This document shows, one piece after another, positions 1,222 to 45,850 of a DNA stretch of 64,000 bases. The notes under the pieces are model-generated. The model ran no database searches, had not been told where the DNA came from, and saw nothing but the letters and a program-made list of their open reading frames with translations. A program made the translations under genes and the position numbers. Source of the stretch: an uncultured Dialister sp. (GTDB taxonomy: Bacteria; Bacillota; Negativicutes; Veillonellales; Dialisteraceae); contig CALHRX010000005.1 of the NCBI GenBank assembly GCA_938038225.1, positions 5,509 through 69,508 of the forward strand. The letters are read 5' to 3'. The first letter of the stretch is position 1, and the number at the start of each line of letters is the position of its first letter.

Positions 1222-3396
1222 TTATTCTTCATGACTGCTGAAAACCGGTACATAGGGCTCCAGCTTTTGTGCAAGAGACATCTCTGTTTCCTGTGTTCTT
1301 TCTTCCGCCAATGCCTGGAAACGGTTCTGTGCACAAAGCTTTTGTTCGGGAGCGATATCCTTGCGCCACGTTCCGTCAGACTGCATAACATGAGCCTTCT
1401 GATTATCTGCTAATTCCCATTCCAGCATATCGTTCAGCCGCTTGCAAAGATCGGCATCACGGACCGGTACCATAAGCTCTACGCGGTCATTCAGATTTCT
1501 CGGCATCCAGTCTGCACTGCTGATATAAAATTCTTCTCTGCCGCCGTTTTCAAAGCGGAATACACGGCTGTGTTCCAAGAAACGTCCTACCAGGCTTCTT
1601 ACGGTAATATTGTCACTCACGCCGGGAATACCGGGAATCAGAACACAAATTCCCCGGACGATTAAATCAATCTTCACCCCTGCGCAGGATGCTTCATACA
1701 GCTTAGCAATGATTTCCTTATCCAGAAGAGAATTCATCTTTGCTGTAATTCGTGCATTTTCTCCTTCTTTTGCGAACTGGATTTCTCTGTCAATCAGTTC
1801 CATACACCGTTCCCGCAGATTGATAGGTGCCACAATGAAGGAATCCCAGATCGGCGGATCAGAATACCCGGACAGAAGATTGAAAAAAGCAGAAGCATCA
1901 GCGCCAAACCGGTCATTGCAGGTAAAAATTCCCAAATCAGTATAGAGCTTTGCCGTAGAGGCATTGTAGTTCCCCGTTGCCACATGGACATATCGGCGAA
2001 TTCCGTCCTTTTCGCGGCGAATGATAAGGGTGCACTTGGAATGGGTCTTCAGTCCCACCATCCCATAAACTACGTGAGCCCCGGCTTTTTCCAGGCGCCT
2101 TGCCATCAAGATATTGTTGGCTTCGTCAAAACGCGCCTTTACTTCCATCAAAACCGTAACCTGTTTCCCGTTTTGCGCCGCCTTTTCCAGAGCCTGAATA
2201 ATCGGGCTGGAAGAGGAGACACGATACAGAGTCTGTTTGATTGCCAGGACATTGTCATCCACTGCAGCAGAGGCAACAAAGTTAACAACGGAATCATCAA
2301 AAGATTCATAGGGAAGGTGAACCAGGAGGTCTTTTTCACGGATCATGTCAAAAATATTCCGCTTCTTTCCCTTTTCCAATTCAATCATAGACCAAGGGCG
2401 ATGAGGATGTGCTTCCTTGTAGCGCAGCCGATCATATCCCTTGATACCGCAAAAGCCAAAATACATCGTCATATCCAGCGGTCCGTCGATTTCATACATA
2501 TCTTCTTTTTCAAGATTCATTTCCTGGGTCATGAAACGGCGCATGAAACGACTCGTTCCCCGTTCGAATTCGATACGGACAGCCTGTCCTCTCTGCCGCT
2601 TTTTCAGCTGTTTCTCCACTTCCACAACCAGATCCTGCGCATCTTCTTCATCAATGTACAAATCGGCGTCCCGAATAATGCGGAAAGGCCGGGCTTCCAG
2701 CAAATCATACCCCATAAAAAGACGGGCTGCGTAATAGGTCAGTACCTGTTCCAGAAGAACAAAATCATGACGGCCGGGATTCGACGAATCATCAGGCAGA
2801 CGAATGATTCGGGGCAGCAGGGACGGCACCGGCACAATTGCCGTCTTTACATCGATATCATTTTCTTCATCAATATCGGTTCCTCTTTCATTTTTCTCCA
2901 GGAGCATTGCGATATTCAGGCTTTTCGCTGCCAGGAAGGGAAAAGGATGTGAGGAATCGACAGCCATGGGCGTAACAACCGGGAATATTTCTCTTTCGAA
3001 ATAGTTTTCCAGCCAATCCTGCTGAAAAGGCTTTGCATCCTTGGGTTGAATGAAATAAAGACCTTCTTTTTCCAGTTCCTTCAATATAATTTTCAGATAA
3101 TGATATTGCTGCGTCACAAGATGCTGACAGAAATCAGAAATGGCATCCAGCTGTTCTGCCGGAGTCATATTGGCAATATCCCGGCGGCTGATATTATTTT
3201 CTTTTTGATGTTTCAGACCTGCTACGCGAATCATGAAAAATTCATCCAGATTGGAGCTGGTGATTGCCAGAAATTTCAATTTTTCCAAAAGAGGATTGTT
3301 CGGGTCCACAGCTTCCTGCATGACTCTCCTGTTAAACTGCAGCCAGGACAATTCGCGATTCAAATAATACCGGTGATTCCTGAGATCGGCGTCCAT
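1222..3396 (-). CDS. ppk: Polyphosphate kinase 1
   Basis: 724 aa. The N-terminus MDADLRNHRYYLNRELSWLQFNRRVMQEA and the C-terminal PLD-like domains are diagnostic of PPK1. Confidence 0.95.
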   Translation of the reverse strand: MDADLRNHRYYLNRELSWLQFNRRVMQEAVDPNNPLLEKLKFLAITSSNLDEFFMIRVAGLKHQKENNISRRDIANMTPAEQLDAISDFCQHLVTQQYHYLKIILKELEKEGLYFIQPKDAKPFQQDWLENYFEREIFPVVTPMAVDSSHPFPFLAAKSLNIAMLLEKNERGTDIDEENDIDVKTAIVPVPSLLPRIIRLPDDSSNPGRHDFVLLEQVLTYYAARLFMGYDLLEARPFRIIRDADLYIDEEDAQDLVVEVEKQLKKRQRGQAVRIEFERGTSRFMRRFMTQEMNLEKEDMYEIDGPLDMTMYFGFCGIKGYDRLRYKEAHPHRPWSMIELEKGKKRNIFDMIREKDLLVHLPYESFDDSVVNFVASAAVDDNVLAIKQTLYRVSSSSPIIQALEKAAQNGKQVTVLMEVKARFDEANNILMARRLEKAGAHVVYGMVGLKTHSKCTLIIRREKDGIRRYVHVATGNYNASTAKLYTDLGIFTCNDRFGADASAFFNLLSGYSDPPIWDSFIVAPINLRERCMELIDREIQFAKEGENARITAKMNSLLDKEIIAKLYEASCAGVKIDLIVRGICVLIPGIPGVSDNITVRSLVGRFLEHSRVFRFENGGREEFYISSADWMPRNLNDRVELMVPVRDADLCKRLNDMLEWELADNQKAHVMQSDGTWRKDIAPEQKLCAQNRFQALAEERTQETEMSLAQKLEPYVPVFSSHEE

Positions 3397-5376: not shown

Positions 5377-6993
5377 ATGAAACGTATTGCCATCATTGAT
5401 TTAGGTTCCAATTCCATCCGTTTTATCATCATTGAAGTTGAATCAAACGGAGCTTACAAATTAATTTATCAGGAAAAGAAATCCATCCGTCTGGCCGAAG
5501 GCATGAGTCCATCCTCAAGGCTTCTTTCGGAAGAAGCCCAGATGAGAGCACTCCGCTGTCTCGCCGTCTATGCAGGCATCATAAAAGTTCAGCAGGTGGA
5601 CAAAGTATTGGCTGTTGCGACGGCAGCCGTACGAAATGCTCTGAACGGAGCCTCTTTCCTTCGAAGAGTCCACCTGTCCACCGGCATTCCCATGACAATC
5701 ATCAGCGGCCAGAAAGAAGCATCTCTGGGTGTTTCCGGGGTTCTCCATACAATCGATGCCAGCGATTTCCTGCTTTTTGATTTGGGCGGAGCCAGCGTGG
5801 AAATTTCCCTGATTCGAAATAAAAAACGTCTTCACTCCGTTTCCATTCCCGTCGGCGCAGTAACTCTGACAGAAAAATTCCACTCCGAGGATACTGTCAC
5901 CAAAGAACAGTCCGAAGAAATCGGAAAATATATTTCCCGGCTTCTGGATAAGATTTCCTGGTTCCCTGCGGAGCCTATCCCCGTAATCGGTGTAGGAGGC
6001 ACCATTCGTAATCTGGCCAAGATTGATCAGCGGGCTTCCGTTTATCCCCTCCACAAGCTGCATAATTATCAGCTTCCCTCAAAGAATCTTTTCGCCATTG
6101 TAGACATGCTTTGCGGAAAAACACGGGACGAACGTCTGAAAATTTCCGGTCTTTCCACTGAGCGTGCCGATATCATTATCGCCGGTTCTCTGGCCGTCCG
6201 GGAAATCGTAAAAAGAGCCAGGGCTCCCTACCTTATTATTTCCGGCTGCGGTCTGCGGGAAGGTCTTTTCTTCCACTACTATGATTCGCTGTACAGGCAG
6301 GAGCCGAAGGGTGAAAAGAATATGCTCCTTGATTCCGTCCGGAACTATCAGCGAACTCTGGCCCCTCACGACACACTTCATACACAATATGTAACGCTTA
6401 TGGCTCTTTCACTTTTTGATCAGTGGGCCAAGAGACATCAGCTCCCGCAAAGGCTTCGGCACGTTCTGGCTGCTGCCGGTTATCTCCATGATGTAGGTAC
6501 TCTGATCAATTATTACAGCCATGCCCGGCACAGTGCCTATATGGTAGCCAACGCGCATATCTTCGGATGGACTCACAGAGAACAGCTCATGGCGGCTCTG
6601 GTCTGCGCATTCCACCATGGCTATTCCGGAAAGATGATGAAGTCATTCCCGCATACATGTCTTCTGACAGAAGAAGATGTCCGTCAGGTAAAAATTCTTT
6701 CCCTTTTCCTCGCTTTGGCGGAAGCACTGGATGAAAACAGAGAACATTGCATTACCCGGCTGATCTGTGCCGACCGCAAGAAGGCCATGGACCTTCGTAT
6801 TTATACTTCGTCAGATAACTTTGATGTTCCCGCTCATGCCGTCAATCATCTGTTAAAGGACTTTGAAAAATCCTTCGGAATCCCCCTGCTGATTCAGTGG
6901 TTCCCCGGTACAAAAGGGAAAAATGAAATTCTGGAAAAAGCCAAACGGTTATGTGCTGCAGATGCGGCGGTTCCCGAATCCGTTCATTCCTGA
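5377..6993 (+). CDS. Ppx/GppA-family phosphatase with C-terminal HD domain (paralog 2); start at MKRIAIIDLGSNS
   Basis: Motif AIIDLGSNSIRFII and an HD-like region YLHDVGTLINYYSHARHS. RBS GAGGAG lies 7 nt upstream of the ATG at 5377. Confidence 0.85.
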   Translation: MKRIAIIDLGSNSIRFIIIEVESNGAYKLIYQEKKSIRLAEGMSPSSRLLSEEAQMRALRCLAVYAGIIKVQQVDKVLAVATAAVRNALNGASFLRRVHLSTGIPMTIISGQKEASLGVSGVLHTIDASDFLLFDLGGASVEISLIRNKKRLHSVSIPVGAVTLTEKFHSEDTVTKEQSEEIGKYISRLLDKISWFPAEPIPVIGVGGTIRNLAKIDQRASVYPLHKLHNYQLPSKNLFAIVDMLCGKTRDERLKISGLSTERADIIIAGSLAVREIVKRARAPYLIISGCGLREGLFFHYYDSLYRQEPKGEKNMLLDSVRNYQRTLAPHDTLHTQYVTLMALSLFDQWAKRHQLPQRLRHVLAAAGYLHDVGTLINYYSHARHSAYMVANAHIFGWTHREQLMAALVCAFHHGYSGKMMKSFPHTCLLTEEDVRQVKILSLFLALAEALDENREHCITRLICADRKKAMDLRIYTSSDNFDVPAHAVNHLLKDFEKSFGIPLLIQWFPGTKGKNEILEKAKRLCAADAAVPESVHS

Positions 6994-7089
6994 TAAGCCG
7001 CTCAGCTTGCTTTCCCCTTTTCGAATCTATGGATTCTAATTTGAATAACTGCCGGCAGCTGCCGGAACGTATAAAACAAGGAGACTGTT

Positions 7090-7584
7090 ATGACAGAAAA
7101 AAGAGAGGGTCTGGAAAATCTGACTCTTCTGGGAAACCAAAATACAAAATATGCCTTTGATTATAATCCGGATCTTTTGGAAAAAATCCCCAACAAGCAT
7201 ACGGATAATGACTACTTTGTAAAATTCAACTGTCCGGAATTTACAAGCCTTTGCCCCAAAACGGGACAGCCGGACTTTGCTACCATTTATATTTCCTACA
7301 TCCCCGATCAATACATCGTGGAAAGCAAGTCGCTGAAGCTGTACCTTTTCAGTTTCCGCAATCACGGAGACTTCCATGAAGACTGTGTGAATATGATTCT
7401 GAAAGATCTTGTTCACCTTCTCAAGCCCCGATACATGGAAGTATGGGGCCGCTTTCTCCCCCGCGGCGGTCTTTCCATAGATCCTTATGCCAATTACGGA
7501 ATGCCTGATACGGAATGGAAAGATTTTGCCCGCTATCGTCTTCTTCACCATGACTTGAATCCGGAAAAGGTAGATAATCGATAA
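7090..7584 (+). CDS. queF: NADPH-dependent 7-cyano-7-deazaguanine (preQ0) reductase
   Basis: 164 aa. The motifs [17 protein letters not shown] and the E(S/L)KSLKLYL region are characteristic of unimodular QueF. Confidence 0.9.
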
Positions 7585-7716
7585 AAGTTCTCTGCTTTTT
7601 TCCGCCTCAAGCGTAAAATTCCGCAGGAGCTCCTCTTCGCCTTTGCAGGGCATTCGGGCGGCTCCGTTTGGAATATATAAGTATACAGATATCCAATATC
7701 ATTAAGGAGGCGCCTT

Positions 7717-8586
7717 TTGGAAAACCAAAACGCAGTATCACAGGCCGTCAATGCCGAACTGGACTGGACCGGACACCTTCTGAACAATCTGAAGGATGTC
7801 GCTTTAGCCCGCGGAATGGATTGGATTACCGCAATCCTTATTTTTATCATCGGATATATCATCTGCCGATATATCCGGCGCGGTGCCCGTCATCTGCTGG
7901 AACGCAGCAATGTAGATCCGTCTGCACGAAGCTTCATTTCTGAAATTATATTCTTTTTCTTCCTGGCTATCGTTGTCCTCTTCGCACTGGGTACCGCCGG
8001 ATTCAATGCGGGAACCTTGGCGGCAGCCTTCGGCGGCATCGGTCTTGCCATTGCACTTGGATTAAAAGATAATATCGGCAATGTAGCCTCAGGAATTTTC
8101 ATTCTGATCTTCAAACCTTTCCGTGTGGGAGATTATATCAAAACTTCTGCAGGTGAAGGAACGGTGAAGGATATCCGTATCATGTATACCGTTCTTTCTA
8201 CGCTGGGCAACCAAATGATCGTAATCCCTAATTCTGCTCTGATCAGCAGCCCTATCAAAAACTATTCCTATAATGATGTAAGAAATCTGGAATACACTTT
8301 CGGCGTGGGGTATGACACCGATCTGCGTTCCTGCCTTTCTCTTTTGCGGGAAATTTTCAGCGAAAGCCCGTATGTACTGGATAAAGAAGGAATTACAATC
8401 TATATTTCCGAAATGGCTGCATCTTCCATCAATATTTATGCCAGAGCTCCGGTTGACCGGACCAAATTTTACGAAGCACAGAATGAAATTTATATTGCCG
8501 TCAAGGCCGCCTTTGACCGGGAAGGCATTGACATTCCATTCCCTCAGCTGGTCATCCATACTGCTCCGGACAAACTTTCATCTTGA
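7717..8586 (+). CDS. Small-conductance mechanosensitive channel, MscS family
   Basis: 289 aa with an N-terminal TM segment and the MscS beta-domain signature FKPFRVGDYIKTSAGEGTVKDI. Confidence 0.85.
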   Translation: MENQNAVSQAVNAELDWTGHLLNNLKDVALARGMDWITAILIFIIGYIICRYIRRGARHLLERSNVDPSARSFISEIIFFFFLAIVVLFALGTAGFNAGTLAAAFGGIGLAIALGLKDNIGNVASGIFILIFKPFRVGDYIKTSAGEGTVKDIRIMYTVLSTLGNQMIVIPNSALISSPIKNYSYNDVRNLEYTFGVGYDTDLRSCLSLLREIFSESPYVLDKEGITIYISEMAASSINIYARAPVDRTKFYEAQNEIYIAVKAAFDREGIDIPFPQLVIHTAPDKLSS

Positions 8587-38782: not shown

Positions 38783-38869
38783 TTGCTGCCGATCCAATGA
38801 TCCGGCCTGCTTCCCCTGAAATTCCGCTCTTTCATGCGGCGGATATTTTTCCCTGCCGAAGGGGCCTTT

Positions 38870-39496
38870 TCAATAATTCATTCCCGTTTTCGGTGTGCTG
38901 TCCGGCTGATTATTTCCGGAAAGATTATCCGGGATATCCGTAGGTACTCTCTTATAGGGGAAACTCTTTTGGATCTGTTTCATGATATCATCCATGATGT
39001 ATTCATTTCTCACAAATCCTTCATCCTCAATTTCGAAGTAGGTGCCCCGGTCCCGGCGGGCTTCGCTTTCTCCGTTCTTTATCGTGTAAATATCCACGAT
39101 GGCCCGGGTGCTGATAATATTGTCGCCGAAATCAAACAGAGACCGGCGGACGATATACTGCTGCCACAGTGCCACCTGCGGAAGGACGACGATATCCGCA
39201 CCGCTCTGCTTTTGAATTTCCGGAAGCAGAGCCGGAGAAATCGGTTTTCCCGCATAGGACGTATCGTCAATCAGACGGTAATAGGGATAGCGAAAAATTT
39301 CCTTCATGGACTTATTGACATAAGCCGCCGCAAAATCTCCCTGTCCGCGATATGATGCGGGAATCAGGAGCACCGTTCTTGTGTTCTCAAAATAGCCGAG
39401 CCGACGATTGGTTTCCGCCGCACTTTCCGCCGATGCAGTAACTCCCGCCAAAAGCAGCAGAAGAAGCACCGTCATAAAAGCCATGATTCTTTTCAT
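38870..39496 (-). CDS. Secreted hypothetical protein (signal peptide)
   Basis: 208 aa. N-terminus MKRIMAFMTVLLLLLLAGVTASA is a typical Sec signal. No recognisable domain. Confidence 0.55.
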   Translation of the reverse strand: MKRIMAFMTVLLLLLLAGVTASAESAAETNRRLGYFENTRTVLLIPASYRGQGDFAAAYVNKSMKEIFRYPYYRLIDDTSYAGKPISPALLPEIQKQSGADIVVLPQVALWQQYIVRRSLFDFGDNIISTRAIVDIYTIKNGESEARRDRGTYFEIEDEGFVRNEYIMDDIMKQIQKSFPYKRVPTDIPDNLSGNNQPDSTPKTGMNY

Positions 39497-39535: not shown

Positions 39536-39575
39536 AAAAAAGAGCTGCCGGAAAGCAGCTCCTTTTGTTACTTAT
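39536..39575 (-). terminator. Intrinsic terminator downstream of the lysR-family gene
   Basis: AAAAGGAGCTGCTTTCCGGCAGCTCTTTTTT on the minus strand. Confidence 0.6.
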
Positions 39576-40431
39576 GGAAATAGCTTCGGATGTAATCCAC
39601 AAAGATTTTGACCGGTGTAGACTGCATCATTGCTTCCTTGTAAATCAGATGGCTGGGCCGCAGGATCGGATGCCGCTGTTTATCATAAATCATCTGCCGG
39701 TCCACCTCAGGCGCACACCGCGGAAGAAGATCTGCCGGAATCAGAGAATGTCCCAGCCCCTGATTGACAATTTCCACGCAGGTCAGGCAGTCGGACACTG
39801 TCAGCATAAAATGAGGGGATTCTTCAAAATTCTGCCGCCACCAGCGGGTGCGGAGCTCATCCAGGGAAGGATCGCTCCGATACCGAATGGACGGCCGCTC
39901 CGGCAGTGTATCAAAATCAATCTTATCTGCCGAAATCAGGTACAGCGGCGCATCCTCCAGCAGGATATCCGCATCAGGCCATTCCTGATTGCCGCGGACA
40001 ATCGCCAGATGAATGTCCTCCTTCTTGACCAGCTTCACCAGACGGTCGCTTGTATCGGTGGTCAGGGAAATCTCAATATCGCTGTATTTATCGACGAATC
40101 CTTTTAAAATTCCCGGCATATGGGACTGTGCAAAGGATTGGCTGGCGCCGATACGAAGTACTCCGGAAATGGAATTCGGTTCATGAGTGACATAGTTCTT
40201 CATATCCTGATATTGCTGCAGTTCCTTTTCTGCAAAGGAAAAAAGACGGTTCCCTGCATCGGTAAAATGAACGCCCTTATTGGTCCGAATAAATAAGGGA
40301 CATCCGATTTCCTTTTCCATCTGACTCAGACGATAGGTAAGGGACGGCTGGGTCATAAAAAGGCGTTTTGCCACCTTATTGATACTTCTTTCTTCCCGAA
40401 GATAGATGAGAATTTTCCAGTCCGTATTGTT
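39568..40431 (-). CDS. LysR-family transcriptional regulator
   Basis: N-terminal HTH (…INKVAKRLFMTQPSLTYRLSQMEKEIGCPLF…) and a C-terminal substrate-binding domain. Divergent from the large helicase-nuclease gene. Confidence 0.85.
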   Translation of the reverse strand, partial: NNTDWKILIYLREERSINKVAKRLFMTQPSLTYRLSQMEKEIGCPLFIRTNKGVHFTDAGNRLFSFAEKELQQYQDMKNYVTHEPNSISGVLRIGASQSFAQSHMPGILKGFVDKYSDIEISLTTDTSDRLVKLVKKEDIHLAIVRGNQEWPDADILLEDAPLYLISADKIDFDTLPERPSIRYRSDPSLDELRTRWWRQNFEESPHFMLTVSDCLTCVEIVNQGLGHSLIPADLLPRCAPEVDRQMIYDKQRHPILRPSHLIYKEAMMQSTPVKIFVDYIRSYFHK

Positions 40432-40714
40432 CATAACGATGCCCCTTGCTTCAAACCCCATTAAAAACAGCAGGTTATAAAATAATCCAGTATAAAATTA
40501 TTTTATTACATTATATCATACAATTCCCCGCCTCTGCATGATGAAGATAAAGATTTTTTTCGATATTAAAAATAAAAATGGAGAGAAACTGCTAAAAAAG
40601 AAACAGCCTTCCGCCTTTCAGGAAATCCGCCGCCTGCACCGTAAAGGACCTTTTTTCTCCTTCTGACGGCTGCTATACTATTTTCATACCATTGCAGGAG
40701 CAGCAGGAGGACTT

Positions 40715-43700
40715 ATGAAAAAAACAGATAAAAAAGCCGTCAAAAAATCCATCAAACCTACGGAAATTTCTACCCTCCGGGACGGATTATATGAAAAGAT
40801 CATGTCACAGGAATTTCAGGACAAACTGCAGGCCTCACTGGACGCACAGGAAATCTGGACCGAGCAGGAGGATCTGGACCCGCAGGAGGCCGTCCCCGGT
40901 CTGGCTGCCTATTTTTCGCTTCTGCTCCGAAACCGTCTGAAAGAACTGGCTGACAGTGATGATACGGATAATGCGGAAGAAGAAATCCGTTTTGTCAATG
41001 ACTGCATCCGCCACCTTTTCCGTTCCGATCAGGAGCTGGGACAGGCTCTGACCGTTTCTCTCAGGAAATCTCTTCTGCTGTCTCTCCAGCACACAAAGAA
41101 TCAGATTTCCCGTGAAGCGGCCCGGAAATCCCGCCCCCGTCCCGATACGTCCCTTTGCCGGAGCTTCCTTTTCACCAACAGCCGGAAGGACGTGAATATC
41201 GCCTCGGAGCTGCGCAGGGAAATTCTTTCCTCGGACCGCATTGACCTGTTGGTCTCTTTCATCAAGTATTCCGGCCTGCGGATGATTTTCCCCGACCTGC
41301 AGCAATTTACCGGCCGGGGCGGCAAGCTGCGCATTATCACCACCACGTACATGGGCGCCACAGACCCCAAAGCCGTGATGCAGCTGTACAAGCTTCCCAA
41401 TACGGAAATCCGCATTTCCTACAATACAAAAGAAACACGTCTTCACGCAAAAGCTTATATGTTTTACCGCAGCAGCGGCTATTCCACAGCCTATATCGGC
41501 TCTTCCAATCTATCCCATGCAGCCATTGCAGACGGGCTGGAATGGAATATGAAAATCACTGCACAGGATCAGCCCCATATTCTGGAGAAGATGCGCGCCA
41601 CCTTTGAAACCTATTGGAATTCCGCGGACTTTTCGCCTTTTACCGACGATCAGAAAAAGCAGCTGAGAGACAGCATCGATGCTATCCGTCATCCCGATAC
41701 CGACAGGCCTTCCGATTATTTCTTTGATATCCACCCCTACCCTTACCAGCAGACTGTCCTGGATACACTGCAGGCAGAACGGGAACTGAAGCATTGCTTC
41801 CGCAATCTGATTGTTGCTGCCACCGGCACGGGGAAAACCGCCATTGCCGCTTTTGACTACCGCCGTTTTGCCGAAAACCGCAGGCCGAAGGCCACACACC
41901 TTCTGTTTCTGGCACACCGCCGGGAAATTCTGGACCAAAGCCTCTCCTGCTTCCGCCAGGTCCTGAAGAACCCCCGTTTCGGTGAACTCTCCGACGGGAA
42001 AGAGCATGCTTCCCATCCGGAATATCTGTTCATGACGGTCCAGACCTTTTCCCGGCAAAAATTCTGGGAACATATGGCTCCGGACTACTACGACATGATC
42101 ATTGTCGACGAAACCCACCATGCTGCCTCCGATTCCTACCAGAAAATCTTCACGGCCTTCCATCCGAAAATTCTTCTCGGTCTGACTGCTACACCGGAGC
42201 GTATGGACGGAAAAAGCATTCTCTCTTATTTTGATCATCATATCAGTGCGGAAATCCCGCTCACCGATGCCATCGAACGCCGTCTCCTCTGTCCCTTCCA
42301 CTACTTCGGTACGGAAGATCCGGTCGATCTTTCCTCCGTATCCTGGAAAGGCGGAAATTATGATACAAAAGAGCTGGAAATCAAGTACGCTTACAATCAA
42401 ATTTCCGCAGGCCGCCGTGCTGCTGCGGTTCTCGATGCGCTCACCCATTATACTGCCGATCTGCGGGACGTAAAATGCATCGGCTTCTGCGTATCAAAAA
42501 AGCATGCCGAGTATATGGCAGGCTATATGAATGAGCACGGCATTCCCTCCATGAACCTGGATGCCGATACCCCGTCTGATATCCGGCGAAAAGCAAAAGA
42601 GCAGCTGGAATGCGGCGAAAAACAGATTCTCTTCACAGTCGACCTGTTCAATGAGGGTGTTGATATTCCCAGTGTCAATACGGTCCTTTTCCTCCGCCCC
42701 ACCAACAGCCTCACCGTTTTCCTGCAGCAGCTGGGCCGCGGACTCCGCCTTTCCCCCGGGAAAGACTGTCTCACCGTGCTCGATTTTGTGGCACAGTCCA
42801 ACAAAAATTATAATTTTGCCCGCCGCTTTTCCGGCCTGCTCGGCAACAGAAACCTTCGTCTGCAGGAGGAAATCAAAGCCGGATTTCCCCATGCACCGAA
42901 GGGCTGCTGCATTCAGCTGGAACCGATTGCACAGAAATATGTTCTGCAAAATATCAGAAGTCATATGAGCAGGGATGAATTTTACCGGGAACAGATCCGC
43001 GCACTGTATGGAGCCACACAAACAATCCCCGCACTGTCCTGTTTTCTGAACGCCCTCGATATTCCTGCAGAATCCTTCTTCAATAAAAACCGCCTGTATA
43101 CCCGCCTCTGTGCAGATGCAGGAATCCGGGAAAAATTTCCCGTCACAAAAGAAGAGTCTGTTCTTTCCGCCGCATGCCCCCGCATCCTGTCCATCGATTC
43201 GCCCCGGTGGATCCGGTTCCTCCAAAAAGAACTGGAGCATCCCTATATGCCCGTCGCCGAGACAGAAAAGCAGTACCTGCGTATGTGGCAGTATACGATG
43301 TACGGCCGGGATTTCAATCAGTGCGGACTGGAATCGCCTCTGGACGTGATTTCCCTCTTTTCCACTCAACCGGCACTGAAGGAAGAGCTCCTGGGCATTC
43401 TTTCCTATCTGTACGACCGCATCACCATCCTCCCGAAGCCTCTTTCCGTTCCCTACCCCTGCGCTCTGGAAGTCCACTGCCGATATACCAGAGATCAGAT
43501 TTTTGCTGCACTGGGCTATAACAATCCTCCCCAGATCCGGGAAGGCGTCAAGTATCTGCCGGAAAAGAAAACCGATGTTTTCCTTGTGACTCTGAATAAA
43601 TCAGCCAGGGAATTTTCGGATACCACCCTTTATGAGGACTATTCCATCAATGAGACGCTGTTTCATTGGCAGTCCCAGAATTCCACGGCACCGGAATCCA

Positions 43701-43936
43701 AAACCGGACAGCGTTACATCCGGCAAAAGGATGAAGCAGAGAATGACTGCACGGTTCTCCTCTTTGTCCGGGAAAGAAAGACAGATAATTATAAACGAAC
43801 TATGAGCTATACCTTTCTCGGCACGGCACACTATGTAAACCATACCGGGAGCCGGCCTATGACGATCATTTACAAGCTGGATCATCCGATTCCCGCACAA
43901 TATCTTCCTGCCACCGACAGCAGCGGTGTACTGTAA
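40715..43936 (+). CDS. PLD-family (single HKD motif) nuclease + SF2 DExH helicase (ResIII/Helicase_C-like) + C-terminal DUF3427-like domain; candidate single-protein anti-phage defence
   Basis: 1073 aa. HKD motif LHAKAYMF...IGSSNLS at about aa 244-270. Helicase motif I ATGTGKT, II IVDETHHA, III LTATPER, VI QQLGRGLR. About 350-aa C-terminal region. An AT-rich promoter region lies upstream (40462-40714). Confidence 0.8.
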   Translation: MKKTDKKAVKKSIKPTEISTLRDGLYEKIMSQEFQDKLQASLDAQEIWTEQEDLDPQEAVPGLAAYFSLLLRNRLKELADSDDTDNAEEEIRFVNDCIRHLFRSDQELGQALTVSLRKSLLLSLQHTKNQISREAARKSRPRPDTSLCRSFLFTNSRKDVNIASELRREILSSDRIDLLVSFIKYSGLRMIFPDLQQFTGRGGKLRIITTTYMGATDPKAVMQLYKLPNTEIRISYNTKETRLHAKAYMFYRSSGYSTAYIGSSNLSHAAIADGLEWNMKITAQDQPHILEKMRATFETYWNSADFSPFTDDQKKQLRDSIDAIRHPDTDRPSDYFFDIHPYPYQQTVLDTLQAERELKHCFRNLIVAATGTGKTAIAAFDYRRFAENRRPKATHLLFLAHRREILDQSLSCFRQVLKNPRFGELSDGKEHASHPEYLFMTVQTFSRQKFWEHMAPDYYDMIIVDETHHAASDSYQKIFTAFHPKILLGLTATPERMDGKSILSYFDHHISAEIPLTDAIERRLLCPFHYFGTEDPVDLSSVSWKGGNYDTKELEIKYAYNQISAGRRAAAVLDALTHYTADLRDVKCIGFCVSKKHAEYMAGYMNEHGIPSMNLDADTPSDIRRKAKEQLECGEKQILFTVDLFNEGVDIPSVNTVLFLRPTNSLTVFLQQLGRGLRLSPGKDCLTVLDFVAQSNKNYNFARRFSGLLGNRNLRLQEEIKAGFPHAPKGCCIQLEPIAQKYVLQNIRSHMSRDEFYREQIRALYGATQTIPALSCFLNALDIPAESFFNKNRLYTRLCADAGIREKFPVTKEESVLSAACPRILSIDSPRWIRFLQKELEHPYMPVAETEKQYLRMWQYTMYGRDFNQCGLESPLDVISLFSTQPALKEELLGILSYLYDRITILPKPLSVPYPCALEVHCRYTRDQIFAALGYNNPPQIREGVKYLPEKKTDVFLVTLNKSAREFSDTTLYEDYSINETLFHWQSQNSTAPESKTGQRYIRQKDEAENDCTVLLFVRERKTDNYKRTMSYTFLGTAHYVNHTGSRPMTIIYKLDHPIPAQYLPATDSSGVL

Positions 43937-43939
43937 AAA

Positions 43940-44003
43940 ACAGCCTCTTTGAGAAGAAATACGGCTTGATGCCGTTCTCTTCCAAAGAGGCCTTTTCTAT
44001 TTC
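43940..44003. terminator. Terminator-like inverted repeat between the convergent helicase-nuclease and sfsA-like genes
   Basis: GCCTCTTTGAGAAGA...TCTCTTCCAAAGAGGC followed by TTTT. Confidence 0.5.
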
Positions 44004-44006
44004 TGT

Positions 44007-45152
44007 TCATTTTTGGATTCGTTCATCGAGACGATTGATTTCAAAATCCTCTTCAATCTGCACAAAGGCGGGCATGTGCATGGGATCTTCGCGGAATCCG
44101 AAAAGATGGGAAGGGCACCGGCAGTCCGTACAGCCGAAGCCCGGGATCTGCCAGTCAGCGATACGGGAAACCGCTTCCGCCAGCCGATGCTCCATGTCCT
44201 CCGCCGTGCGGACAGGAATGCATCCCACCCAGTCCGCTTCCTGCCGGAGCCAGTCAATATGCCAGTGCATGCCTTTCCGAAGCCGGCGGTGGCGGGCCAT
44301 TCTCTGATCCAGGTTCTTTGCCGCCGAACCGGTATAGACATAATAGCCCTTCGGGAAACGAATCTTACCCATTTTTCCGATTTCCACATTCTTAGTTTCA
44401 TTCATTCGGAGAATCAGCAGGTAATCTCCTCTGTTCCCTGCTTCCTTGTCCAGAATATACAGAGGTGCAGGAAGAAGACGCACGCTTTCCGGCACTGTCA
44501 GATCCGGCGTCCATCGGAGAGCCGCCGCCTTCCAGTCTATATAGGGAGCGGAAAGACGGAATGCTTCCGCAAATTCCGGGTCGGTATGATAATCCGGAAG
44601 GAACCACTGCGCCCGGTCCCACTGAACCAGAATCAGCAGCCCTGCCTTTCCGCCGCTTTTCCCGATTTCTCCCAGATGAAGCACATGCTTTCTTCCCCGG
44701 GCTGTTACCGCATCGGGGAACATGGCACCCTTTCTGCCGAAAAGTGTGCATGATTTTACCTCTACGGGAAATTGCATTTTCTCATTTCCGATCACCAGAT
44801 CAAACCGGCTGTCTCCCATCGTCACTTCCCGCCGCAGTACCCGGTAATCCTCCCAGCCGGGTATCCTTTTATGGTTGATCAGCCATTCCGCCGTATCGTT
44901 GGCCCGGGAAGTATCGAGCGGAATTACTTCTCCCTCTCTTTCCGCTCCGATGACGCGGTACTTTGTCCGGCTTCCTTCCTTTGCATGAGGCACCGCATAA
45001 AGAACGACACCGGGAAACAGCAGTTCCCTCATCCGCCCCGGATTGGGCATATGGGCTCTGACCGGCTCGCCATCGATTTCCATATCAATCACAAACCGAT
45101 TCGGCCGGCGCAGGAAGCGCCCTTTTTTTATGACCGGATATTCTTTTTCCAT
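44007..45152 (-). CDS. sfsA: SfsA-family (sugar fermentation stimulation protein A-like, nuclease fold) fused to a C-terminal DUF123/GIY-YIG-like domain
   Basis: The N-terminal 230 aa align with E. coli SfsA (…RFL.RPNRF...H.PN.GRM.EL..PG..V...). C-terminal ~140 aa carry YYVYTGSA...R..RH (DUF123/GIY-YIG-like). The start is set at MEKEYPVIKKG. Confidence 0.7.
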   Translation of the reverse strand: MEKEYPVIKKGRFLRRPNRFVIDMEIDGEPVRAHMPNPGRMRELLFPGVVLYAVPHAKEGSRTKYRVIGAEREGEVIPLDTSRANDTAEWLINHKRIPGWEDYRVLRREVTMGDSRFDLVIGNEKMQFPVEVKSCTLFGRKGAMFPDAVTARGRKHVLHLGEIGKSGGKAGLLILVQWDRAQWFLPDYHTDPEFAEAFRLSAPYIDWKAAALRWTPDLTVPESVRLLPAPLYILDKEAGNRGDYLLILRMNETKNVEIGKMGKIRFPKGYYVYTGSAAKNLDQRMARHRRLRKGMHWHIDWLRQEADWVGCIPVRTAEDMEHRLAEAVSRIADWQIPGFGCTDCRCPSHLFGFREDPMHMPAFVQIEEDFEINRLDERIQK

Positions 45153-45181
45153 CGGTTCCTCCTCCGAAAAATATTTCTCCG

Positions 45182-45850
45182 CTACAGGAATTCCCGGGGA
45201 AAAGCGGACAGTGCTTTCTTCCTTTCCCGGTAATCCGGCATCCATTGCAGAATCAAATCATAAAACCTTTGATTGTGGGTCGGCTCCAGCAGATGATTCA
45301 GCTCATGCACGACTACACTTTCGATAAGCGGCTTCGGCTTCGTGACCAGGTCCAGAGCAAAAACCAGCTGTCCTGTCCGGATATTGCAGCTTCCCCATCG
45401 GCTTTTCACCGCTTTCACTGTAAAACCTGCGGGCTGTACTCTCATCCGGGGCACCCAGTATACCAGCTTTTTCCGAATTTCTTCCGCCAGGACTTCCGCC
45501 GCACCGGCTGCATACAGCTTCCGCCGATTCGCCCGGGAGGTGCGCAGCCCCATCCGGATTTCTTCTTCCGTAAAAACGATACTCTGCCGTGCCGCCCGGA
45601 AAATCTTCAAAGGAATCTGCCGTCCGAAAACATAATGGAGCTCTCCGGAAATATATTCATAGTTTTTCTGCTCCGGAAGTATATCAAGCATCCGGCGAAT
45701 CCAGTCCTCCTTGCTTCGGATAAATGCTTCCGCCTCGGAATCTCCTGTCCCTGCCGGCACCGTGACAGATACAGTTCCGTCCCGCCGGATCCGGATATAC
45801 ATATTTTTGATTCTCTTTCTGACAATGAGAACCTTCCAGGGAAAATTCAT
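45182..45850 (-). CDS. DUF45/YgjP-like M48-family zinc metallopeptidase (SprT-like)
   Basis: 222 aa. HExxH motif in VVHELNHLLEPTHNQRFY. The N-terminal ...YIRIRRDGTVSVTVP... is typical of the family. Confidence 0.8.
   Translation of the reverse strand: MNFPWKVLIVRKRIKNMYIRIRRDGTVSVTVPAGTGDSEAEAFIRSKEDWIRRMLDILPEQKNYEYISGELHYVFGRQIPLKIFRAARQSIVFTEEEIRMGLRTSRANRRKLYAAGAAEVLAEEIRKKLVYWVPRMRVQPAGFTVKAVKSRWGSCNIRTGQLVFALDLVTKPKPLIESVVVHELNHLLEPTHNQRFYDLILQWMPDYRERKKALSAFPREFL

Follow-up and report, generated by a model that had tools for sequence, protein, structure and literature searches.

The window analysed here, a 64,000-nucleotide stretch of the genome of an uncultured Dialister (contig CALHRX010000005.1), contains an open reading frame (ORF) at 40715..43936 on the + strand that begins with ATG and comprises 1073 codons and a stop, exactly as claimed in an earlier reading made from the letters without database searches (the sequence-only reading). 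The gene diverges from a LysR gene (39568-40461, - strand) and converges on a gene encoding an SfsA-DUF123 fusion (44007-45152, - strand), and by this layout, as had been stated, it is monocistronic. The 1073-residue product very probably belongs, as a full-length member, to the SauUSI family of type IV (modification-dependent) restriction endonucleases, with a mechanism that can be proposed by homology. The host is a Dialister of the human gut (Negativicutes), as judged from the FtsY encoded at the same locus, which shares 88-92% identity with its counterpart in numerous representatives of Dialister species, D. succinatiphilus YIT 11850 among them.

Several comparisons lead to the SauUSI family. 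Four Pfam domains score above their gathering cut-offs, PLDc_2 (aa 173-301), ResIII (339-496), Helicase_C (576-679) and DUF3427 (917-1061), and the domain content put forward in the sequence-only reading is thus borne out by the profile search it had suggested. The PADLOC model mREase_IV PDLC03659 matches with 724 bits (E = 5e-218), aligning aa 134-1062 to positions 8-934 of its 945, while a second mREase_IV model, PDLC03658 (953 positions, the length of SauUSI), scores 293 bits. In a phmmer search against the PDB the best match is 7CLG (E = 7e-85), which is the deposition of SauUSI (Tumuluri et al. 2021, PMC7913695). A profile built from 65 homologues aligns to SauUSI in one collinear stretch, profile positions 134-1029 to SauUSI 32-920 (E = 5e-136), that takes in nuclease, ATPase, coupler and target-recognition domain (TRD). 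An AlphaFold2 monomer model computed from the same alignment (mean predicted local distance difference test score, pLDDT, 81; predicted template-modelling score, pTM, 0.63) has as its top Foldseek match 7clg_A, 'ATP-dependent restriction endonuclease SauUSI' (E = 6e-44, 932 aligned columns), and the runners-up are helicase-only proteins such as RadD (2e-17). No NCBIfam equivalog reaches its cut-off for this protein. The candidates rejected on this ground are the RadD repair helicase (NF053632, 86.3 bits against a cut-off of 720) and the type I HsdR of the EcoAI family (NF046051, 124.4 against 550), both matching in the helicase core only, the Dnd-associated restriction enzyme (TIGR04095, 80.4 against 600), and Cas3, whose score lies far under the curated cut-off.

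The motifs listed in the sequence-only reading (LHAKAYMF, GSSNLS, GTGKT, DETHH, TATPER and QxxGRGLR) are all present in the translation and fall into the expected domains. The phospholipase D (PLD) nuclease domain, of the single-HKD type, spans aa 158-310 (41186..41644, + strand; Pfam PLDc_2 and RE_NgoFVII) and includes LHAKAYMF at 243-250 and GSSNLS at 262-267. Its catalytic residues H244, K246, N265 and E276 align to H119, K121, N139 and E150 of SauUSI and are invariant in 65/65 homologues; the SauUSI mutants H119A, K121A, N139A and E150A are inactive (Xu et al. 2011, PMC3141236). The helicase-like ATPase/translocase of superfamily 2 (SF2) follows at aa 339-700 (41729..42814, + strand; Pfam ResIII E = 3e-36, Helicase_C E = 1e-14), with Walker A GTGKT at 371-375, Walker B DETHH at 465-469, motif III TAT at 491-493, within TATPER (491-496), and motif VI QQLGRGLR at 671-678. 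GTGKT, DExHH, TAT and QxxGRGxR are invariant across the 65 homologues. The next-best sequence matches after SauUSI are a Vibrio vulnificus HsdR fragment (3H1T, profile E = 2e-33) and RadD, and the type ISP motor LlaBIII (4XQK) is among the structural matches of the model; these are the same relatives that were reported for SauUSI (PMC7913695).

The C-terminal part had been described as an uncharacterised domain of ~350 aa, a description that does not hold: it consists of two known SauUSI modules, a coupler at aa ~701-915 and a DUF3427/SRA-like TRD at ~916-1073. The alpha-helical coupler, aa 701-915 (42815..43459, + strand), belongs to the unbroken collinear profile alignment, in which it corresponds to the SauUSI coupler (618-805). 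It is modelled as nearly all helix across aa 701-901, and conservation is lower in it (0.55) than in any other of the four SauUSI-like domains. The TRD, aa 916-1073 (43460..43933, + strand; Pfam DUF3427 E = 5e-23), aligns to SauUSI 806-920. The SauUSI TRD has been modelled as an SRA fold that flips 5-methylcytosine (5mC) into a pocket formed by Y831, F841, I842 and W868, with D858 reading the base (PMC7913695), and the predicted flipped-base pocket of the Dialister protein comprises Y947, L957, V958, D975 and W985. D975 and W985, the equivalents of D858 and W868, are invariant across the 65 homologues, and the position of Y947, which corresponds to Y831, is Y, F or W in 64/65. L957 (for F841) and V958 (for I842) occupy positions that are mostly L and mostly V, respectively, whereas M829, in the inserted 'finger' of SauUSI, aligns to E943 and is not conserved.

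Preceding the region shared with SauUSI is a helical extension, aa 1-133 (40715..41113, + strand), that has no counterpart in SauUSI. It is present in all 65 aligned homologues at a length of 101-140 aa, carries the conserved motifs DG-YEK, DPQEAV-YL and CLKDIAD, and is invariant at G24, Y26, D55, L63, Y66, L75 and N95; a further motif, RP-TSL-SFLFTNS, sits just past it in the 134-157 linker. Helices are predicted at 32-43, 56-81, 88-101 and 106-111, and the pLDDT of the block is mostly 71-87 over residues 21-130. Searches with the extension of Pfam (E up to 10) and of the PDB by profile gave helical-repeat matches at chance level only. When searched for exhaustively by profile, the module turned up in 743 cluster representatives, located N-terminally among the matches listed, and a Pfam scan of ten of the longer matches placed PLDc_2 after the module in 10/10 and ResIII as well in 9/10; full-length proteins with the module usually end in DUF3427. 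Its presence in so many cluster representatives indicates that the module marks a large uncharacterised SauUSI-like subfamily rather than a peculiarity of a single gene. As a guess, it may regulate or stabilise the PLD dimer. In one module-profile match of 978 aa (P0231) the N-terminal module, PLD and helicase are the same but DUF3427 is replaced by an alpha/beta-hydrolase domain (Hydrolase_4, aa 719-930), a possible swap of the sensor domain.

A Shine-Dalgarno sequence, AGGAGG, is located at 40703-40708, 6 nt ahead of the ATG, and the region 40521..40714 (+ strand), which begins where homology to Dialister DNA with an empty slot ends (~40520), represents the 5' untranslated and promoter part of the inserted segment. 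A candidate -10 box, TATACT at ~40674-40679, was spotted by eye and not called by the promoter scan; a consensus scan of 40462-40714 found no sigma-70-like site. The 253 bp upstream of the gene had been called unusually AT-rich, and their GC content of 0.364 does fall in the lowest 2.2% of 253-nt windows, but at least 10 further intergenic stretches of the window are comparably AT-rich, and the AT-richest part (40462-40520) is LysR-proximal and is kept in genomes without the SauUSI-like gene; it therefore looks like an ordinary promoter region. Likewise, the description of the gene as bracketed by terminators applies on the 3' side but not on the 5' side. The 70 bp gap between the convergent genes holds a hairpin (43943..43991, assigned to neither strand), with an A-run ahead of it and a T-rich tail behind, that has a folding free energy of -29.5 kcal/mol (z = -5.67) equalled in 0/200 shuffles and is probably a bidirectional intrinsic terminator. 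The closest terminator-like site on the 5' side is at 39542-39561, beyond LysR, and terminator-like sites are not enriched in the region (10 found, 7.1 +/- 3.0 in shuffles). A 13-nt inverted repeat, GTTATAAAATAAT / ATTATTTTATTAC, with a 10-nt spacer (40474-40509), lies upstream of lysR within the part conserved in gene-less genomes and is probably LysR's own operator. A role of LysR as dedicated regulator of the SauUSI-like gene is unlikely, since LysR and this palindromic box are ~90% conserved in genomes that lack the gene.

The SauUSI-like gene and the SfsA-DUF123 gene together make up a 4.7-kb segment (40521..45181, without strand) that is absent from the slot between YgjP and LysR in other Dialister species, with breakpoints at ~40520 and ~45182 by blastn against empty-slot genomes. 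Both genes are missing by tblastn from this slot in all of the ~20 other Dialister species representatives that span it (within loci L003-L046 of our set), presence and absence having been scored at the FtsY-linked slot only. FtsY, YgjP and LysR are adjacent in those representatives, and where the contigs reach far enough SMC is found upstream and a 208-aa ORF, a histidine phosphatase (HisPhos), serA and serC downstream, in the same order. The segment from lysR to ftsY, for which variability among relatives had been suggested as a check, is thus variable between species. Within the species the picture is different, as the gene is present in each of the 10 sampled contexts with an identical LysR. 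The sequence-only reading had held that conservation with the same neighbours would speak for a core gene, an argument that is not valid for the SauUSI family: the gene is in 10/10 contexts of its species and yet absent from sister species, and highly similar SauUSI homologues occur across sequenced S. aureus genomes (Xu et al. 2011, PMC3141236).

Between strains of the species, the products of the SauUSI-like, SfsA-DUF123 and YgjP genes are 92-98% identical (95-97% for the SauUSI-like protein itself), and FtsY, LysR and serA are 98-100% identical, with 100% in most strains. In L083, a closely related lineage, identity is 95-97% for the flanks and 74%, 79% and 72% for the SauUSI-like protein, SfsA-DUF123 and YgjP. 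Because these genes diverge more than their flanks in both comparisons, the segment is a local hotspot of divergence. At its edges there are neither direct nor inverted repeats, and neither an integrase nor a tRNA gene, and recent horizontal transfer is not supported by composition, as GC (0.51) and GC at third codon positions (GC3, 0.59) both equal those of the neighbours. The neighbouring genes encode LysR, SfsA-DUF123, YgjP, FtsY, SMC, serA, serC and the histidine phosphatase, with no methyltransferase among them, and no PCQ motif of C5-methyltransferases occurs when the 64-kb window, which covers only a small part of the genome, is translated in all six frames; both observations are consistent with a SauUSI-like mechanism. 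PADLOC models find no match in SfsA-DUF123, YgjP, LysR, two small hypothetical ORFs or a strain-variable 218-aa ORF. The earlier proposal of a stand-alone defence gene accordingly agrees with a full-length match to a defence model and with neighbours none of which matches a defence component.

The convergent neighbour (44007..45152, - strand) encodes a 381-aa fusion of SfsA_N (an OB fold), SfsA (a PD-(D/E)XK domain) and DUF123 by Pfam, and scores 164.8 bits against a cut-off of 126 for the NCBIfam sfsA equivalog; no paper pairing SfsA with DUF123 was found in the literature searched. The two genes are placed tail-to-tail, ~35-70 bp apart, in three contexts in which the SauUSI-like proteins are 62-96% identical to that of the window (L083, L085, L086-L089, L099 and L100): between LysR and YgjP, between LGT and YchF, and between rplM-rpsI and YchF. 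Homologues at <=59% identity are found without the SfsA-DUF123 partner, and 78 metagenomic loci hold SfsA-DUF123 relatives at 50-58% identity with no homologue of the SauUSI-like gene nearby. An obligate partnership is ruled out by this distribution, and the pairing is read as a clade-limited and probably ancestral adjacency.

In other genera the SauUSI-like homologues are found in unrelated contexts. In Succiniclasticum a 58%-identical homologue is separated by ~5 kb from a gene for DpnII, next to which lie two methyltransferase genes (PF02086 MethyltransfD12 and PF01555 N6_N4_Mtase). In the three loci concerned (L090-L092, 11230-18953) the homologue is followed by an NYN/OST-HTH gene, four further genes (seven in L092) and then the DpnII and methyltransferase genes; the intervening genes have no Pfam match save the last one (DUF6339), and the arrangement looks like a defence island. 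DpnII systems make N6-methyladenine (6mA) in GATC, and if these methyltransferases do so, the proximity of the homologue argues against dependence on 6mA. In Acidaminococcus fermentans the homologue is downstream of a PDDEXK_2 gene in two different upstream neighbourhoods, which suggests that the two genes move together (L093-L095, ~6400-7900; the PDDEXK_2 gene, 273 aa, is just upstream of the homologue, and an 89-aa ORF is called in 2/3 loci). In a 49%-identical clade the homologue is near a resolvase fragment. Such a patchy, context-free distribution is as expected for a stand-alone defence gene, and the accessory character of the gene between species together with its varied contexts in other genera supports a role in defence.

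Several features of the surrounding DNA may be recorded here. The YgjP-like metallopeptidase gene next to the indel (45182-45850, - strand) encodes a protein that shares just 35-49% identity with those at the same position in other Dialister species, where FtsY and LysR are ~90% identical, and is either fast-evolving or has been replaced by recombination. Most strains of the species have the extra 218-aa ORF between YgjP and SfsA-DUF123 (L179 at 2532-3188, + strand; L180, L181 and L183-L188); it is missing from the window (45152-45182) and from L182 and has no significant Pfam or PADLOC match. Beyond LysR two ORFs overlap on opposite strands, 38834-39355 (+, 173 aa) and 38870-39496 (-, 208 aa), neither with a Pfam or PADLOC match; public assemblies call the 208-aa ORF, for which conservation among other Dialister-group representatives is 36-56%, and the 173-aa ORF is probably spurious. 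Finally, eight loci (L009, L017, L020, L021 and L038-L041) encode an FtsY 80-90% identical to that of the window and, where reached, similar YgjP, LysR and SMC, in bins named Fusicatenibacter, Paludibacteraceae, Agathobacter, Ruminococcus bromii, Lachnospiraceae and others ('cleanbin' assemblies). These are probably mis-binned contigs in public metagenome-assembled genomes.

The SauUSI-like protein can be set against several known systems that share one or another of its parts. The DUF3427-PD-(D/E)XK fusions McaZI, BwiMMI, EfaL9I and YenY4I (Lutz et al. 2019, PMC6765204) have the same DUF3427 sensor of modified cytosine, restrict T4gt, a phage with 5-hydroxymethylcytosine (5hmC), and show toxicity in Dcm+ cells (PMC6765204). 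In these fusions, however, PD-(D/E)XK replaces PLD, the helicase motor and hence ATP dependence are lacking, and the sensor is N-terminal rather than C-terminal as in the Dialister protein. PbeA, which has PLD and SF2 helicase domains, resembles part of the PLD and helicase core (PDLC02707, E = 6e-43, aa 231-697), but the match ends at aa 697, there is no coupler or DUF3427, and the score is five-fold under that of mREase_IV. PbeA is also part of a multi-gene system. Type I HsdR and the type ISP enzyme LlaBIII have related SF2 double-stranded-DNA translocase cores (3H1T and 4XQK) and likewise couple recognition to ATP-driven translocation and cleavage at a distance, although their nucleases are of the PD-(D/E)XK type, the DNA that they cut is unmodified, and they rely on methyltransferase and specificity subunits or domains. 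Mokosh type II and Hna, whose logic the sequence-only reading had seen here in inverted order, with an implication of novelty, are similar just in the general idea of a nuclease-helicase fusion in single-gene defence; they have a helicase of another superfamily and no modified-base sensor. The Mokosh MkoB model (PDLC03922) matches weakly and in PLD residues 174-285 only (E = 1.3e-4), Hna is outside the best 25 PADLOC matches, and the SauUSI architecture was already known, so that neither the Mokosh/Hna comparison nor the implied novelty is supported.

The closest comparison is with SauUSI of S. aureus USA300 (7CLG). In the two proteins PLD nuclease, SF2 ATPase, helical coupler and DUF3427/SRA TRD follow one another identically, conservation extends to the four catalytic residues of the PLD domain, the motifs of the ATPase and the Asp/Trp/aromatic pocket, and both are encoded by a single gene with no adjacent methyltransferase that is fixed in its species and patchy in its wider distribution. 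They differ in that the Dialister protein belongs to a host of the Gram-negative type (Negativicutes) and is matched best by PDLC03659 rather than by PDLC03658, and in further respects which weigh against a simple transfer of function. Identity to SauUSI is just ~25% in the structural alignment. The ~133-aa helical module without a SauUSI counterpart could alter regulation or oligomerisation. The TRD is the weakest-matching part in a single-sequence search (10.6 bits), and the roles of the SauUSI pocket residues stem from a docking model, not from mutagenesis (PMC7913695). With M829 replaced by Glu (E943) and F841 by Leu (L957), base or sequence specificity may therefore differ from that of SauUSI, and the sequence context, even the exact modification, that is recognised could be another one. 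These TRD differences raise the question of whether an enzyme of the same family and mechanism might sense some other modification or context, such as only hydroxymethyl- or glucosyl-hydroxymethylcytosine, N4-methylcytosine or another hypermodified base, and be directed at hypermodified phages rather than at Dcm-type methylated DNA. Many homologues also have, in the consensus, an insertion between the Y947 strand and the next one, and other DUF3427 proteins restricted T4gt (5hmC) with little activity in vitro (PMC6765204). On the other hand, the cytosine-reading D975 and the stacking W985 are invariant, the methyl-contacting aromatic is retained, and every characterised DUF3427 protein binds 5mC or 5hmC, and we consider a different modification or context unlikely. 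The same holds more strongly for a mechanistic departure of the N-extended subfamily from SauUSI, in which the module would gate PLD dimerisation or sense a phage trigger and the Dialister-clade enzyme might also cooperate with the convergent SfsA-DUF123 in a two-gene module; this we regard as decidedly improbable.

Such a two-gene module with the dual nuclease SfsA-DUF123, acting for example as back-up nuclease or regulator, would explain why the pair is kept across rearrangements, and the tail-to-tail arrangement in three genomic contexts, the joint absence of both genes from the slot in other Dialister species and their divergence, faster than that of the flanks, all speak for it. Taken as an explanation in its own right it is nevertheless very improbable, since the genes are convergent with a terminator between them and so are not co-transcribed, the more distant homologues and the 78 SfsA-DUF123 loci each lack the other gene, SfsA-DUF123 has no PADLOC match, and SauUSI acts alone; two of the three contexts, moreover, share the SfsA-YchF side, which fits a simple ancestral adjacency. 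There is also the question of whether the protein is a housekeeping helicase-nuclease of DNA repair or recombination, RadD-like or HsdR-like, with no part in defence. Its helicase core does resemble those of RadD and HsdR, its GC and GC3 match those of host genes and it is fixed within the species, but the RadD and EcoAI HsdR models score far below their cut-offs with matches confined to that core, the gene is absent at the slot in ~20 sister species representatives, and the match to the restriction-enzyme model is full-length. RadD and HsdR are not known to carry a PLD domain or DUF3427. A housekeeping function is exceedingly unlikely.

Taking the protein as a SauUSI-type restriction enzyme, we propose the following mechanism by analogy. 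The gene would be transcribed alone from the region that diverges from lysR, transcription ending at the bidirectional hairpin. Two protomers would dimerise through their single-HKD PLD domains and form one composite centre from H244, K246, N265 and E276. The DUF3427/SRA-like domain would scan DNA and flip a modified cytosine, most likely 5-methyl- or 5-hydroxymethylcytosine, into the D975/W985/Y947 pocket; SauUSI cleaves 5mC and 5hmC DNA, requires ATP and restricts Dcm+ lambda and plasmids (PMC3141236). Recognition would presumably activate the SF2 ATPase by way of the helical coupler, as suggested by SauUSI, which is a dimer via its PLD domains, carries a TRD of the SRA fold and has an ATPase and a translocation that are activated by recognition (PMC7913695). 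The motor may then translocate on double-stranded DNA, extruding loops and moving the nuclease off the site, and repeated double-strand cuts would shred modified foreign DNA, whether phage, plasmid or transforming DNA; translocation with loop extrusion and shredding of DNA have been reported for SauUSI (bioRxiv 10.1101/2025.10.16.682607). The host would be spared because it does not make the recognised modification, and no partner methyltransferase would be required.

The order of PLD, SF2 ATPase and DUF3427 is the SauUSI architecture, described in 2011 (PMC3141236) and determined structurally in 2021 (PMC7913695, PDB 7CLG), and Negativicutes homologues from Megasphaera and Phascolarctobacterium are already included in Supplementary Table S3 of Tumuluri et al. 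(PMC7913695). The SauUSI-like gene is very probably a stand-alone defence gene, of an already known kind, and understanding of the family is unchanged by it. RefSeq-type annotation of the family reads 'DUF3427 domain-containing protein', a label that says too little about what can be recognised as a type IV restriction enzyme. The N-terminal module, as the mark of a large uncharacterised subfamily, could merit one biochemical study. The main value is practical: with a SauUSI-type enzyme fixed in a common species of gut Dialister, DNA from Dcm+ E. coli is predicted to be shredded as it enters the cell, and for transformation of, or conjugation into, the poorly tractable Negativicutes, Dcm-minus or methylation-free DNA is advisable, as was learned for S. 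aureus.

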